Virus record (IMG/VR): IMGVR_UViG_2675903658_000008
Span: 1 to 41,775 of that record
Source of the DNA: a virus
Taxonomy: Duplodnaviria > Heunggongvirae > Uroviricota > Caudoviricetes
Reading direction: 5' to 3' (one strand)
Length of the DNA: 41,775 bases
Numbering within the stretch: position 1 is the stretch's first letter; the number at the start of each line of letters is the position of its first letter. The position numbers were made by a program, and so were the translations under genes. The notes beneath the pieces are model-generated. The model searched no databases. It saw nothing but the letters and a program-made list of their open reading frames with translations, and was not told the origin of the DNA. This document shows positions 4,654 through 11,565 of the stretch, one piece after another.

Positions 4654-5087
4654 TGGTTGCCTCCTTTGCGAAGCTGGTCGGCTAACTCATCACATATGTG
4701 CGTCAAAGAGCAAAGTTTGATTGATGGATGTTCGCGCATCATCTCTACTCCCTGCGCCCGCACCTCAGCCAGGAAAGCGTCGGTGGCTGGGATTTCAGTA
4801 ACATCATCTTCCCATTCGCTAAACTCCTCACGACAAAAGTCATTAAATTCCTTCTCTGATTGCTTAAGCGAGGCATTTTCAGCAGCCATCTTCGCGCATT
4901 TAGCCTCAAGGTTATCAATCGTGATTCCAGCAGAACGACACTCCCGCAACGCCGTTTCCAGTTTTGATTCAAGTTCACCGAACTTACGGACAAGATATTC
5001 AGCGTTTGTTTCGTTAACCTTTAAATCTCGGGGGATGCATTTACCTTTCAGAAATCCATCCATCTCAATTAGTGACATTTGTTTCAT
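4650..5087 (-). CDS. Hypothetical coiled-coil protein
   Basis: ORF in early-left operon; start ambiguous (GTG 5105 or ATG 5087); ATGA overlap with upstream small ORF. Confidence 0.5.
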
Positions 5088-6362: not shown

Positions 6363-7070
6363 TTATGCCGCCTGTTTTAGTTCGTTAACTCTGATGTTCA
6401 TTACCTGAACGCATTTAGCCTGCGCATCCTCATTGCCAGCCATTAATTGCCAGTCATGCTGATAACGTTCTATGAGTTTTTTCTTGTCAGTTTCTGTCGA
6501 TGCATAATCGCTGAAGTCTTTCAGGATTTGTTCGCAGTCAACCGATGGAGATTTCTGGTTGGTATTTTCTGGTGATGGTTGATTGCCAGATGCTGGCATT
6601 GCCCATCCCGGCAGCGATGGAGGGGACCAGTAAAATCCTGTTCCATCTTTCAGTTTTGCCCTGTGCCATCCCTGCTTTTTATCGAGAGATGTTTGTGCGA
6701 AACCTTCCTCAAGGTTATACAGATACCGACCGATTCCCCACTGAACGGCAGCGCGCTTCATTGCGCCGGAACGACCACCTTTGACGGCTTCTACCTGCGT
6801 GTTTTCAGCAGCATCCCATTTGGTTACCCATTCGGAATCAATCCTGATTGATATGCCGCATTCAACGCCTCCGTTGTTGGGAATATCGCGGTATTCATTG
6901 CGCCATCCTGCTTTGCCGCAAACATCGTCCAGGCGTTTCATGATTGCCCTGTTCGTGACATAAGCCAGCACCATAGCCCACACCTTGCCATCGCGTGTTT
7001 TACCGCTTTGCTGTATTCGCCATTCGATATCTTCAGGGCTGAATGGCTCATCGAATTTATTCAAATCCAT
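6363..7070 (-). CDS. Rad52/Sak-like single-strand annealing recombinase
   Basis: 235 aa; N-terminal Rad52-like signature including GIGRYLY; GGTG RBS; sits beside ssb. Confidence 0.7.
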   Translation of the reverse strand: MDLNKFDEPFSPEDIEWRIQQSGKTRDGKVWAMVLAYVTNRAIMKRLDDVCGKAGWRNEYRDIPNNGGVECGISIRIDSEWVTKWDAAENTQVEAVKGGRSGAMKRAAVQWGIGRYLYNLEEGFAQTSLDKKQGWHRAKLKDGTGFYWSPPSLPGWAMPASGNQPSPENTNQKSPSVDCEQILKDFSDYASTETDKKKLIERYQHDWQLMAGNEDAQAKCVQVMNIRVNELKQAA

Positions 7071-7078
7071 AATTCACC

Positions 7079-7249
7079 TCAGAATGGACATGGACCAAGG
7101 AAATAACGCTGATTTAATACTTCGGTCTTTGCCGCATTTAAAAAGACGCGAACACCTTCACGATCTCCCTTCTGGCGATACATTAACGCCTGCTGCGTGT
7201 ACAAGCGCCTCTGTAACTTGCTTTCCTTCACTGTGGTTGCAAGTGACAT
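7079..7249 (-). CDS. Small hypothetical protein (56 aa)
   Basis: Own translation MSLATTVKESKLQRRLY...; AAGGAG RBS 6 nt upstream; stop overlaps the recombinase RBS; overlaps an alternative-frame ORF. Confidence 0.3.
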   Translation of the reverse strand: MSLATTVKESKLQRRLYTQQALMYRQKGDREGVRVFLNAAKTEVLNQRYFLGPCPF

Positions 7250-7461
7250 GCATATCTCCTTCGTTACCGATTAATTCTTTCATCTGACGAATGAATTCTT
7301 CGTCTGACCAGTTATCTGTAAAACTCATTTCCTGCGATACCACGGAATGTTGATAGCTGATTTCATCGCTTTATTTGCTTCAAGCCACATTTTGGAATCA
7401 CCAATAAATCTGGCTATTACTGCTTTGTTTTGTGCTGCACGAAGCATCTGGTGATTGATGG

Positions 7462-7596
7462 TTATTTCATTGCGCATAACGCCTCCAGTTGTTTCTTTGC
7501 TGCTCTGATTAATTGTTTAACTCGGCGTGATAATTCAGATTCGAGCGGGTAGAAAGCGGACATGACGCCGCTACCCGCGAGCTGAAAGTGCATCAT
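7462..7596 (-). CDS. CIII-like small protein (putative FtsH inhibitor)
   Basis: 44 aa from ATG with AAGGAG RBS; amphipathic PLESELSRRVKQLIRAAKKQL resembles lambda CIII core (recalled); the longer listed ORF spans a terminator. Confidence 0.5.
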   Translation of the reverse strand: MMHFQLAGSGVMSAFYPLESELSRRVKQLIRAAKKQLEALCAMK

Positions 7597-7660
7597 GGGT
7601 AACTCCTTATATTTGATTGCATAACGAAAACGCCTCTCGTGAAGCGTTATTGGTATGCAT

Positions 7661-7686
7661 ATAAAAAAGCCCTCACACTGGAGGGC
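7661..7686 (-). terminator. Rho-independent terminator upstream of cIII-like gene
   Basis: GCCCTC-CAGTGT-GAGGGC hairpin followed by TTTTTTAT on the minus strand. Confidence 0.55.
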
Positions 7687-7820
7687 AAAGAAGATTTCCA
7701 ATAATCAGAACAAGTCGGCTCCTGTTTAGTTACGAGCGACATTGCTCCGTGTATTCACTCGTTGGAATGAATACACAGTGCAGTGTTTATTCTGTTGTTA
7801 GTGCCAAAAATAAAGGCCGG

Positions 7821-8444
7821 CTATGCGGCCTCGGAAGGAAGTCCAATCATCTTATTCAAATCTTCTACCCGTAAAGCAGGAAGTGCTGTACTTGCTTTAT
7901 CTGCTTCTTTTGGTAGCAATTCTTTGCTTTCAGGCCAAACTTCAATAAGTCGCTTAACTGTTGTTACTGAGTTCAAAGCAGCCCATACATTTGATTCGAT
8001 ATCCTTTTTCAAGGCTTCAAGGTTTTGTTGCAATGCGCAGATTTCATCAAACCTTTTTGTTATTTCGTGTTCTGCGTCAAACATGCATTTATCTTTGGTT
8101 GGAGTAGGGAGCAATATATCTTCGCCGTTGCCGTCTTTCCCATATGAATGCCATCCAACCCTTCTGCCAGATACAGTCAGATAAATTGAAGTAGAAAGAA
8201 CATCGTATGAGTAAAATGAACATCCCATCTTTTCAAGTTCTTCACTTATAGCTACCAACTTGGATGATAACTGATCCACTTCCTCAGTTTTCTTTTTACC
8301 GCCAAACGCAATAACTCTGGCGTCAAGTGCAAGCTGGTTCTTTAACTTTGTTACTTCTTCAAGTTCAGTGAAAACCCCAGACTTAATTAAAGCGTTACGA
8401 GCGATTTCCTCTTTCATTCTCGTAGTTAAGCGGATTGATGACAT
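7821..8444 (-). CDS. Hypothetical protein (207 aa), pL-operon accessory gene
   Basis: AT-rich ORF; start at MSSIRL with GAGAGGAA RBS; no recognisable motif. Confidence 0.6.
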   Translation of the reverse strand: MSSIRLTTRMKEEIARNALIKSGVFTELEEVTKLKNQLALDARVIAFGGKKKTEEVDQLSSKLVAISEELEKMGCSFYSYDVLSTSIYLTVSGRRVGWHSYGKDGNGEDILLPTPTKDKCMFDAEHEITKRFDEICALQQNLEALKKDIESNVWAALNSVTTVKRLIEVWPESKELLPKEADKASTALPALRVEDLNKMIGLPSEAA

Positions 8445-8455
8445 ATTAATTCCTC

Positions 8456-8566
8456 TCAAATAAGTGGTTTGCTGCCTAATTTCATTTTCTGGCGACCAAC
8501 ACAAGTCACACCCATTTCACTGCGTGGCTTGCGGTAGTAAAGATTGTGCCTGTCTTTTAACCACAT
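8456..8566 (-). pseudogene. Remnant of a lambda-type N antiterminator (C-terminal fragment)
   Basis: Open frame encodes ...YYRKPRSEMGVTCVGRQKMKLGSKPLI, resembling recalled lambda N C-terminus; no credible RBS or N-terminal ARM. Confidence 0.4.
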
Positions 8567-8627
8567 CAGGCTCGGTGGTTCTCGTGTACCCCTACAGCGA
8601 GAAAAATAGTAAAATCCTCTCACCCCC

Positions 8628-8990
8628 TTATTTTGTCATGGGGATATCTCCTTCAGTTCTGACCATTCGCCTTAATACTTTCCTTAAGTCGATGTAAAGT
8701 TGAAGGTCTCCATTTGCTTCGGCATCAGCCATTTTTTGCCTGACAAGCAGTAATGTTTCATACGGCTCAATAAGAATATCGTCATGAGTAATTAGGTGAA
8801 GCGTTGCCGCATCAACTATTCCTAGAGCTGCGCCAAGTATCAAAAATTCCCTGCTATTTTTGTCGCATGAGGAGATAAGCGTATTTAGCGCATACCTAAT
8901 ATTCTTTATAGCTGTTGTTAATGCTGCAATTTCTTCGATGGTGTCTTCTTCAATGAGCTTTTTAAGCTCATATTTTTCTTCCTGACCCAT
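8628..8990 (-). CDS. Hypothetical protein (120 aa), immediately downstream of N
   Basis: ATG at 8990 two nt after N stop with GAGG RBS; AT-rich; no recognisable motif. Confidence 0.55.
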   Translation of the reverse strand: MGQEEKYELKKLIEEDTIEEIAALTTAIKNIRYALNTLISSCDKNSREFLILGAALGIVDAATLHLITHDDILIEPYETLLLVRQKMADAEANGDLQLYIDLRKVLRRMVRTEGDIPMTK

Positions 8991-8992
8991 AA

Positions 8993-9301
8993 TTACCTCG
9001 CCGTCAATTGTTTTGATTTCCGGTAGCCTGCTGCGTAAATGGCTACGTTTGGCAGGCAAATACTTCCACTGCATTCGTCGGTATTTTGGTTACGAATGTT
9101 GCCGAGTGATATTGCTTTTTCAGAAAGGCTTAAACGCTTTCTCGTGCCTTTCTGAACAGGTTCCTCACTGTCTGTGCCGAAGATAGAATCAATGATGTTA
9201 CAGATAGCATCACGCTCGATGGCCAGCTTTCTGCGCCGCTCATGACGGCGAGTTTTGGCATTTCCTGCAAATGTTGATTTTCCGTACACGATTACCGTCA
9301 T
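8993..9301 (-). CDS. N-type antitermination protein, P22 gene 24-like
   Basis: Arg-rich motif AKTRRHERRRKLAIER near N-terminus; overall resemblance to recalled P22 gp24; GAGGA RBS; downstream of pL/nutL. Confidence 0.8.
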   Translation of the reverse strand: MTVIVYGKSTFAGNAKTRRHERRRKLAIERDAICNIIDSIFGTDSEEPVQKGTRKRLSLSEKAISLGNIRNQNTDECSGSICLPNVAIYAAGYRKSKQLTAR

Positions 9302-9421
9302 GATGTTTTCCTCATGTGAAATGGCTTTGGTGGTGATGCGCCAGATGCTGATCTTCTGGTTGCTGTCGTTGCAGCTGCAATTCACATCACCGCCAAACCC
9401 ATCTCGTTTGGTATCTGTTTG

Positions 9422-9455
9422 CGCTTTGTCAGCGCCCCATCGAAGTTAAAGAGCA
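9422..9455 (-). promoter_or_regulatory. nutL (boxA plus boxB hairpin)
   Basis: Minus-strand GCTCTTTAA boxA and GCGCT-GACAA-AGCGC boxB hairpin (P22-type) between pL and N. Confidence 0.6.
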
Positions 9456-9492
9456 TGCCAATCTGTTCCGTTTGGCTTCCAGCGTCCTGCTG

Positions 9493-9563
9493 ATGTGTTT
9501 AGTATCACCGCTAGTGGTATTTGTGTCAACACCGCCAGAGATAATTTATCACCGCAGATGGTT
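9493..9563 (-). promoter_or_regulatory. pL promoter with OL1-OL2-OL3 operators
   Basis: Three 17-bp lambda-type operators (TATCACCGCTAGTGGTA, CAACACCGCCAGAGATA, TATCACCGCAGATGGTT); minus-strand TTGACA and GATACT hexamers. Confidence 0.8.
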
Positions 9564-9710
9564 ATCTGTATGTTTTTTATATGGATTTATTTTTTGCAGG
9601 GGTGAATTGTTAGGTAGGTGAGGGATCAGAATTGCACTGTTTAGCAAGTTGTATCTATTAGTTTTCCAATAAATACAAATGGTTATGTGTTGTTGGGAAG
9701 GGGGATCGAG

Positions 9711-9741
9711 AGGCAAAGAAAACCCGGCACTGAGGCCGGGT
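9711..9741 (-). terminator. Rho-independent terminator after the rex-position cassette
   Basis: AACCCGGC-CTCAGT-GCCGGGTT hairpin followed by TTCTTTG on the minus strand, just past the 9748 stop. Confidence 0.5.
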
Positions 9742-9747
9742 TGTGTG

Positions 9748-10119
9748 TTACTTAAGAACGAGTCCGTTTAAGGCATCAAGGATTTTGGAAACATAACTTC
9801 CAAAAATGTAGGCGCAAAATGCGAACACGAAACTGACAACGACCGCAGATGCCTTAATGGTGGTTTTTGCTGAGCTAATGCTTGTCTCAATACCTGACAG
9901 ACGAGAATCAACAGATTTTATATCTGACTTTACCTCAGCGAGATCGCGCTTGATGTATTCAACATCAGACTCTAGCTTTGCAACTCTAGCCTCAAGCATG
10001 TTACCTCCGCCGTTTCCTCCACCATGCCGAGAGTATGCATCATCAGTGGAATAGTGTCCAATTGGGCGAGATATGTTTTGATTTGGACGAAGCTGAGCAA
10101 CCTTGTTATCTAAACTCAT
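9748..10119 (-). CDS. Coiled-coil protein with C-terminal transmembrane anchor (candidate membrane effector, rexB position)
   Basis: ATG overlaps upstream gene stop; Gly-rich N-terminus, heptad-like coiled coil, hydrophobic ASAVVVSFVFAFCAYIFGSYV near C-terminus; internal GGAGG before Met41. Confidence 0.6.
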   Translation of the reverse strand: MSLDNKVAQLRPNQNISRPIGHYSTDDAYSRHGGGNGGGNMLEARVAKLESDVEYIKRDLAEVKSDIKSVDSRLSGIETSISSAKTTIKASAVVVSFVFAFCAYIFGSYVSKILDALNGLVLK

Positions 10120-10543
10120 CGCGAACTGATCCTGTTATCTTCACGTCAAAAAACGAACTTTTTACATCAATTACTTCGCCTTTCTCAGGATTAACCAGTG
10201 ATGCTCTAACTTCGAATATCCCAGGCTTGATAATTTTCACCCTTGGGAAGTTAATTCTCATAGAAGTTGATACGATGGTTTCTCCATCGTTGGCTTCTGC
10301 TACCGTAAAAAACTTATGGTTGGAGTACAGTTTTGTGTCAATTGGTATCGGTATTTCTTGAGCATTGAAAACCTCAATGCCTATGGAATATTTTTTTGTA
10401 GCCTTAAGGCCGATAAAAAAAGCGCCAAATGACAGATCCACTTCATGGGAGTCTTTATCCATTTCATAGATAAGAACTGGAGTTACGGGGTTGCCTTCAT
10501 CCATCGCAATCGGAATGATATAAGAAATACGTTCTTTAATCAT
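10106..10543 (-). CDS. Hypothetical soluble protein (145 aa), rexA position directly after cI
   Basis: Starts 7 nt after cI stop; AT-rich; no recognisable catalytic motif. Confidence 0.65.
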   Translation of the reverse strand: MIKERISYIIPIAMDEGNPVTPVLIYEMDKDSHEVDLSFGAFFIGLKATKKYSIGIEVFNAQEIPIPIDTKLYSNHKFFTVAEANDGETIVSTSMRINFPRVKIIKPGIFEVRASLVNPEKGEVIDVKSSFFDVKITGSVRDEFR

Positions 10544-10550
10544 TTACGTG

Positions 10551-11267
<717 letters not shown>

Positions 11268-11274
11268 TTAAATC

Positions 11275-11340
11275 TATCACCGCAAGGGATAAATATCTAA
11301 CACCGTGCGTGTTGACTATTTTACCTCTAGCGGTGATAAT
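11275..11340. promoter_or_regulatory. OR3-OR2-OR1 operators with divergent pRM and pR
   Basis: TATCACCGCAAGGGATA, TAACACCGTGCGTGTTG, TACCTCTAGCGGTGATA; TTGACT and GATAAT hexamers for pR. Confidence 0.85.
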
Positions 11341-11355
11341 GATTGCATGTACTAA

Positions 11356-11565
<210 letters not shown>

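Follow-up and report, generated by a model that had tools for sequence, protein, structure and literature searches.

The window analysed here is a stretch of 41,775 nucleotides (nt) covering positions 1 to 41,775 of the IMG/VR virus record IMGVR_UViG_2675903658_000008 (Caudoviricetes). The open reading frame (ORF) under study lies at 8628–8990, directly downstream of the gene encoding the N antiterminator, and is hkaQ, a genuine gene that has been catalogued since the HK620 genome of 2001. The two genes and the signal at their junction are located as follows.

8628–8990, minus strand: hkaQ, 120 amino acids (aa), with the ATG at 8990–8988 and the TAA at 8630–8628
8993–9301, minus strand: N antiterminator gene, 102 aa, matching PF25694 (E=4.6e-40) and phrog_271, with a P22-type arginine-rich N-terminus and a C-terminus ending in ...CLPNVAIYAAGYRKSKQLTAR
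8996–8999, minus strand: GAGG Shine-Dalgarno (SD) sequence of hkaQ, formed by the last two sense codons of N (GCG AGG), 5 nt before the ATG

The junction between N and hkaQ reads ...ACG GCG AGG TAA TT ATG GGT, which bears out the claim of an earlier, sequence-only reading that the ORF starts 2 nt after the N stop with a GAGG ribosome-binding site (RBS). The same reading called the ORF AT-rich, and its GC content is indeed 39.1% against 47.4% for the window, placing it in the lowest 6% of 363-nt windows. It was also said to carry no recognisable motif, in agreement with the Pfam, NCBIfam and PADLOC scans, none of which gave a significant match for HkaQ. The gene product is a member of PHROG 7374, which covers residues 1–120 of 120 (E=7.5e-78) and is annotated with 'unknown function'; the description of an unknown gene is thus correct for the annotated function and incorrect for the gene itself, which has a catalogue entry. 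At the DNA level hkaQ is 98.1% identical to hkaQ of the P22-like coliphage HK620 and is equally close to the copies in the lambda-like phages HK629 and HK630 and in phage Stx1a_10051. The sole 100% match is located in a prophage of E. coli FHI_NMBU_03 (NZ_CP019455.1, 407505–407867), with the same gene order as in the window. HkaQ of HK620 (NP_112050; HK629 gp44; HK630 HkaQ) is the product of the same gene: identity is 98% for nucleotides and 96–97% for aa, the length is equal, and this gene too starts 2 nt after N. The HK620 locus differs in that the N of the window has the P22-type arginine-rich N-terminus, and in that hkaP is replaced in the window by a cassette consisting of an N remnant and an Nmad5 gene.

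Two other gene models were considered and rejected. Some database entries give a 148-aa form with a start at 9074, out of frame over N, which like the 120-aa form has no Pfam or NCBIfam match. In other lineages the frame upstream of 8990 is either interrupted or without an ATG, and diverged HkaQ homologues have their start at the position equivalent to the ATG at 8990. The second model was an N-HkaQ fusion produced by frameshifting. The overlapping frame is open over 33 codons here and over only 9 in Yersinia, and it contains no slippery site.

A stop and a start codon a few nucleotides apart, with an SD sequence inside the upstream ORF, is the architecture by which translationally coupled pairs are recognised. 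N and hkaQ have this arrangement, and hkaQ is accordingly predicted from its sequence context to be translationally coupled to N. The signals relevant to transcription of the pair are listed below.

9501–9529, minus strand: pL-type promoter, TTGACA-17-GATACT, 10 of 12 matches in a consensus scan, which would drive N and hkaQ
9421–9456, minus strand: nutL-like region read from the sequence, with a boxA-like TGCTCTTTAAC and a boxB hairpin GCGCTGACAAAGCGC
7813–7832, minus strand: first intrinsic-terminator-like hairpin downstream of pL, after the Nmad5 gene, with none earlier from pL in the terminator scan

The boxB sequence GCGCTGACAAAGCGC, which we take to be identical to that of P22 nutL, is of a type that agrees with the P22-type arginine-rich motif of N. 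On the other side of pL, a terminator-like hairpin at 9742–9721 closes the transcript of the cI side of the immunity region before pL is reached. In the promoter and terminator scans pL was the only strong promoter-like site upstream of hkaQ, and the stretch from N to hkaQ was free of matches of either kind. The sole further minus-strand promoter-like match nearby, at 8843–8815, falls within hkaQ itself, past the start codon. The annotated tL1 terminator of HK620 is also located beyond hkaQ. The co-expression with N proposed in the sequence-only reading is therefore supported by the 2-nt gap, the SD sequence within N and the uninterrupted stretch between the genes, whereas its assignment of hkaQ as the first delayed-early gene is not, as the first predicted terminator-like site lies only beyond the next gene. 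On the lambda model, a first terminator beyond hkaQ means that the gene would be co-transcribed with N and immediate-early rather than delayed-early, although the prediction covers intrinsic terminators and not Rho-dependent ones, so that the expression class is tentative. Transcription would begin at pL and place hkaQ on the RNA of N, before the first predicted terminator, and translation would start from the SD sequence in the last two N codons. HkaQ and N should then be made side by side at the onset of lytic growth, and hkaQ would be silent in the lysogen.

A perfect 8-bp palindrome at 8953–8971 (ATGAGCTT-AAA-AAGCTCAT), 17 nt into hkaQ, is terminator-like on the plus strand, and the hairpin can also form in the mRNA. 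The palindrome was rejected as a regulatory candidate; none of the other HkaQ lineages has it, and it is therefore probably a chance by-product of the codons for YELKKL.

The regulatory modules of the region from 9421 to 11565 are hybrid. The cI, cro and pL segments are approximately 92% identical to lambda, boxB and the N motif are P22-type, and the joint falls between pL and nutL.

Approximately 50 loci with an HkaQ homologue were collected, and they comprise four diverged lineages (E. coli/Salmonella, Citrobacter, Yersinia and Symbiopectobacterium). The homologue is always the first gene after N. Wherever N ends in ...TAR, as in the E. coli-type and Citrobacter-type loci, the Yersinia locus L014 and the closely similar IMG/VR locus L056, the start codon is exactly 2 nt past the N stop, with the junction consensus GCG-AGG-TAA(or TAG)-NN-ATG, and the GCGAGGT sequence is conserved in all four lineages. 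The N proteins encoded upstream are of at least six N-terminal, arginine-rich-motif types, including HK620/21-like, P22-like, 933W-like and HK629-like, and have in common a single C-terminal motif, CLPxVAxYAAG[YFH]RKSxxLTAR. Two groups of loci retain this end of N only as a fossil. In the P0013-type contigs (L179) the HkaQ-like start is directly preceded by an out-of-frame CLPQVALYAAGHRKSVNITAR*, and the working N is lambda-like at its C-terminus. In Symbiopectobacterium just AAAGCGAGGTGAAATATG survives, 37 nt beyond the stop of a lambda-like N. The hkaQ start and its SD sequence are kept even where the N 3' end has decayed, and these fossils indicate that the link between N and hkaQ is not a dependence at the protein level. 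Linkage has a simple mechanical explanation: the N 3' end is both the leader and the SD sequence of hkaQ, so that recombination splitting the two would remove the RBS.

From these observations hkaQ is very probably an N-linked mobile accessory gene. The cassette would move between phages by recombination inside N, with the N 3' end as the upstream boundary and the downstream boundary free. Short conserved 'boundary sequences' have been proposed for the exchange of modules among lambdoid phages (Clark et al. 2001, on HK620; Susskind and Botstein 1978; both as cited in PMC3029335). The conserved N 3' end resembles such boundary sequences in acting as the upstream edge of the hkaQ cassette, and differs from them in lying within a coding region and in also carrying the RBS of the cargo gene.

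The position after N is not reserved for hkaQ. A scan of IMG/VR for the N C-terminal motif returned at least 119 loci, with the following occupants directly after N.

HkaQ: at least 36 loci
unrelated 74-aa protein (phrog_5305): at least 54 loci
'MDLNK/MDLSK' protein of 138–150 aa: at least 11 loci
'MDISC' protein of 97 aa: at least 3 loci
198-aa protein (phrog_2539): at least 2 loci
single occurrences of other genes: at least 5 loci
no cargo gene (empty): at least 8 loci

No function is on record for any occupant among the loci listed, and hhalign comparison of HkaQ with the MDLNK/MDISC cargo family gave a probability of 0.1%, indicating that they are unrelated. The phage Lambda_ev203 encodes a closely related N (89% aa identity) that is followed directly by a convergent sieB-like gene without hkaQ, and in P22 sieB is directly next to gene 24, which encodes an N of the same C-terminal type. 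The sequence-only reading described hkaQ as inserted after N; in the comparative sense this holds, given the Lambda_ev203 N without hkaQ and the unrelated genes at the same junction elsewhere. In mEp235 an HK022-type Nun gene starts 2 nt past the N stop. The lambda/H-19B-type N ending (...GRQKMKLGSKPLI*) behaves in a similar manner, as its stop overlaps a TGAGGTGA Shine-Dalgarno sequence that is followed by any of approximately 12 different cargo genes. The other occupants (phrog_5305, MDLNK, MDISC and phrog_2539, and Nmad5 and others after lambda-type N) share with hkaQ an SD sequence in or at the last N codons and a start 2–11 nt past the stop, and like hkaQ they bring the N 3' end along, often as a fossil, although their sequences are unrelated to HkaQ. 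Many IMG/VR cargo genes are preceded by a mere N remnant with an ORF of 9–38 codons from the first ATG. The first post-N position is a swappable slot with occupants of almost entirely unknown function, for which the N 3' end supplies both the RBS and the recombination joint. The modestly new elements at this locus are the location of the SD sequence inside N, the N 3' ends that travel along with cargo genes, the little-explored slot for N-coupled cargo and a probable misnaming in RefSeq that is described below.

Two N-family genes in tandem within the pL operon, with cargo between them, were observed in L011 (mEp213; 875–2632), in L004 (1009–2948) and in L003. Phage mEp213 has two annotated N genes, and the Citrobacter-type contigs encode a PF25694 N followed by the HkaQ homologue, with a PF26859 N farther along.

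The hkaQ gene is present in 96 of 5,426 complete E. coli genomes, many of them O26, and is found in P22-like, lambda-like and Stx phages, the last including the Stx1a-converting phage Stx1a_10051. Source names place it also in E. albertii and Salmonella. A 62%-identical form occurs in Citrobacter freundii, and forms of 40–44% identity are found on a Yersinia pekkanenii contig, an IMG/VR contig and the Symbiopectobacterium purcellii chromosome. An exhaustive HMMER search of 1.84 billion representatives added one true distant relative (P0008); the long matches P0007, P0010 and P0011 are repeat proteins aligned over short stretches and were discarded as artefacts. Scans of metagenomes and genome collections contributed only three further loci. 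The gene is intact in 41 of 42 IMG/VR loci and frameshifted in the remaining one, and frameshifted prophage copies are represented by L055 and P0004. Comparison of hkaQ with the 62%-identical Citrobacter-type homologue gave 0.28 nonsynonymous substitutions per site (dN) and 1.69 synonymous substitutions per site (dS), a dN/dS of approximately 0.17.

The AlphaFold2 (AF2) model of HkaQ consists of four helices with a predicted local distance difference test (pLDDT) score of 77.6. The protein has a pI of 4.9 and a charge of −6, compared with a pI of 9.95 for N, and it is a small, mildly acidic, all-helical and probably soluble protein. Two groups of columns are kept at 40% identity: A27-I-x-N-I-R32, which closes helix 1, and I58-V-D-A-x-T-L-H-L66, H69, D71, L73, E75 and P76, which run from the last part of helix 2 into the loop that follows. 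The conserved segment IVDAATLHLI-HDD-L-EPY falls partly within this low-confidence loop, which is the least confident part of both structure models. The Yersinia and Symbiopectobacterium forms lack helices 3 and 4, which points to the hairpin and the loop as the functional core. Such a loop, conserved yet poorly ordered and carried by a small scaffold of helices, would fit a protein-binding module.

Homology searches and structure prediction, which the sequence-only reading had proposed as a check, were carried out and returned no match to a characterised protein by sequence or by fold. Searches of the Protein Data Bank with the single sequence and with the profile gave only a marginal match to a designed protein, and the fold search gave none. 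RefSeq/PGAP names many of the 120-aa members 'antitermination N domain protein'. The N-family profiles (PF25694/PF26859) do not match HkaQ, BLASTP against the N of the window gave nothing at E<=100, and the HkaQ N-terminus (MGQEEKYELKKLIEED) is not an arginine-rich RNA-binding motif of the kind found in N. The RefSeq name is likely a misnomer that arose from the location of the gene or from the 148-aa gene call overlapping N, and it ought not to be passed on to further records. HkaQ does not belong to the Nun proteins, as it lacks the arginine-rich motif and is unrelated to mEp235 Nun as judged by reading the two sequences without a formal alignment. It also has no PF14163 match and, unlike the SieB control, its hydrophobic segment is not a conserved transmembrane helix, which sets it apart from SieB. 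The very high negative charge density and matching fold of Ocr/ArdA-type DNA mimics are not found in HkaQ either. A literature search found no functional study of hkaQ; the gene came up in a single paper, in which the intergenic region between hkaP and hkaQ of HK620 served as a neutral site for insertions.

The function tentatively favoured for HkaQ is that of an early protein-binding factor that may neutralise or redirect a host or resident-prophage protein, in counter-defence or in host takeover. The sequence-only reading had likewise named host defences and host functions as frequent targets of genes at this place, a suggestion drawn from position that the present results neither support nor contradict directly. 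This reading, which falls short of even odds, is favoured because the gene is dispensable and sporadic across virion, immunity and N types, because its expression appears to be lytic-only and to occur at the earliest moment, and because ral, 17 and abc2 are found in the same operon of related phages. By annotation the P22 pL operon carries ral and 17, and the prophage in the window has an anti-RecBCD gene further down the operon. By analogy with Ral, gp17, Abc2 and Gam of the same operon, HkaQ would bind a host or prophage protein. Ral, gp17 and Abc2 of lambda and P22 are comparable in being products of small pL accessory genes that act early against restriction, prophage exclusion or RecBCD; they differ in having no sequence or profile similarity to HkaQ, and in P22 their genes lie beyond sieB, further from N and uncoupled from its stop. 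In this respect hkaQ is one more well-placed candidate among the uncharacterised early accessory genes of temperate coliphages. Several observations weigh against the counter-defence or takeover reading, in addition to the tentative expression class. HkaQ has no sequence or fold similarity to any characterised anti-defence, host-takeover or regulatory protein. The gene is clearly dispensable to most lambdoid phages, and its family is tiny, with three E. coli-type clusters at 90% identity (two fragments counted) and a few diverged relatives among 5.8 billion proteins. Among near-identical E. coli variants the ratio of nonsynonymous to synonymous polymorphism (pN/pS) is 0.67, which fits relaxed constraint. 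In three lineages the immediate neighbour of hkaQ is a convergent gene of exclusion or moron type (SieB, HkaP or GhoS-like), and the only characterised occupant of an equivalent N-adjacent slot, Nun, is an exclusion factor and not a counter-defence protein. A more far-reaching version of this reading is doubtful. In it, HkaQ would found a new class of immediate-early proteins that disable host or prophage immunity or exclusion (for example of the SieB type) through the hairpin and the HDD-L-EPY loop, and N 3' ends would be docking sequences for cargo (HkaQ, phrog_5305, Nmad5 and others) that make the first pL position an unrecognised counter-defence hotspot.

The precedent of Nun also raises the alternative that HkaQ is a prophage-borne exclusion or defence protein like Nun or SieB, made in the lysogen to block superinfecting phages. 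Nun (HK022, mEp235) does occupy the equivalent place in mEp235, where its gene directly follows N in the pL operon. Exclusion genes such as sieB are found close to N in lambdoid phages, and hkaQ is AT-rich like many morons. Nun itself is a basic protein that acts on RNA polymerase at nut sites through an arginine-rich RNA-binding motif, whereas HkaQ is acidic, lacks such a motif and is dissimilar to it. Expression in the lysogen would moreover need a source of transcription, and no promoter-like site lies from pL to hkaQ, the sole other minus-strand match nearby being inside the gene; the terminator-like hairpin at 9742–9721 ends transcription from cI ahead of pL, a promoter that is repressed in lysogens. 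Together with the lack of a PADLOC match and the frameshifted prophage copies, these features make an exclusion role unlikely. A modulatory effect of HkaQ on N or on the early decision is likewise improbable; it might consist, for instance, in protecting N from Lon, or in adjusting antitermination or the choice between lysis and lysogeny. The invariant position after N in four lineages would imply stoichiometric co-expression, and other small pL-operon proteins work in this way, cIII being one that acts on the early regulatory decision. However, similar N proteins, those of Lambda_ev203 and P22 gene 24, work without HkaQ, and HkaQ occurs with both N C-terminal types and with at least six arginine-rich-motif types. 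Unrelated proteins are found in the same slot, and the SD sequence inside N is sufficient to explain the linkage.

The convergent neighbours suggest a different role, that of an Esc-like self-immunity protein or antidote partnered with a convergent exclusion gene, or of a protein that counteracts the SieB-type exclusion exerted by resident prophages. In L178 and in the Yersinia and P0013 types the HkaQ homologue is followed by a convergent SieB (PF14163), and HkaP is next in 16 of 45 E. coli-type loci. Among the IMG/VR loci listed, which are not phylogenetically independent, hkaP is next in 11 of 29 HkaQ loci against 0 of 62 loci with other cargo. The neighbours are nevertheless three unrelated proteins (SieB; HkaP, phrog_1244; and a GhoS-like protein), and most E. 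coli copies, that of the window included, have no such neighbour. In P22- and lambda-type phages that lack hkaQ, sieB is directly next to N, so that position alone may account for the adjacency, and the antidote role is decidedly improbable. An anchored envelope protein resembling Kil or Imm is suggested by residues 49–67 (FLILGAALGIVDAATLHLI), which have a 19-residue Kyte-Doolittle mean of 2.03 and a GxxxG-like spacing. The Hessa-scale sum of this segment is +2.8, which is unfavourable for insertion; in the distant homologues the corresponding values are 1.5 on the Kyte-Doolittle scale and +4.9 to +8.3 on the Hessa scale, whereas a true SieB transmembrane segment scores 3.0 and −2.1. AF2 also packs the helix of residues 49–67 in the core at the highest confidence of the model, and a membrane location is very unlikely. 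The least probable explanation is that hkaQ is a decaying hitch-hiker, kept only for lying between N and selected neighbours. The pN/pS of 0.67 in close variants, the occasional frameshifts and the variable C-terminal tail would fit decay, but the low long-range dN/dS, the motifs kept at 40% identity across four genera and the preservation of start and SD sequence next to decayed N 3' ends do not.

Downstream of hkaQ the window departs from HK620, and the region from nutL to the Nmad5 gene is a mosaic of the following segments and features.

9497–9093: 95% identity to Stx2a_3993, covering nutL and the first ~70 codons of N
9121–8616: 95% identity to HK620, covering the last ~43 codons of N and hkaQ
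8524–8626, minus strand: spacer, of which 8626–8547 is 98.8% identical (blastn) to 4910–4989 of the HK620 locus, beyond hkaP
8604–8524: sieB-promoter region, 97.5% identity to P22 and 98.8% to lambda
8541–7700: 98% identity to mEp235, covering the orphan N remnant and then the Nmad5 gene
8456–8541, minus strand: orphan N 3' remnant of lambda/H-19B type, ...YYRKPRSEMGVTCVGRQKMKLGSKPLI / ...MGVTCVGRQKMKLGSKPLI, 99–100% identical to the N 3' ends of Stx phages and H-19B
7821–8444, minus strand: Nmad5-family gene ('nucleotide modification associated domain 5'), PF18757 (E=2.2e-70), in the same transcription unit

The window lacks hkaP, the 533-bp convergent gene that follows hkaQ in HK620. In its place, the N remnant provides the junction and the SD sequence for the next cargo gene, and the Nmad5 gene starts 11 nt past the remnant N stop with a GAGG of its own. 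The working N (8993–9301) has a different C-terminus from the remnant, an intact equivalent of which is held by Stx2a_3993. With N and hkaQ followed by the remnant and Nmad5, the prophage carries two cassettes of an N end plus cargo in tandem. The context downstream of hkaQ varies across the loci and includes hkaP, Nmad5, several other genes of unknown function, a true SieB (Yersinia and P0013 types) and a GhoS-like gene (Citrobacter type). In some hkaQ alleles the C-terminal tail differs from residue ~117 on, which places the right-hand recombination joint at or just inside the 3' end of hkaQ.

The hkaP gene of HK620 (L001, 4394–4888) is annotated as a 'putative superinfection exclusion protein' and sits in the place of sieB. 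It is not a homologue of SieB (PF14163), as tblastn with the P22, ev203 and Yersinia SieB proteins missed it, and its only match is to phrog_1244 (unknown function).

An Rfam scan of 7000–11500 gave nothing relevant. Between cI and pL, at 9748–10543 on the minus strand, two overlapping genes encode proteins of 145 aa (phrog_5893) and 123 aa (phrog_6136), the latter with weak matches to XhlA-like coiled-coil and transmembrane regions. This pair, for which the PADLOC matches are weak, is a candidate prophage-expressed defence pair. The same place between cI and pL is occupied by rexAB in lambda and by hicAB in mEp234 and HK106.

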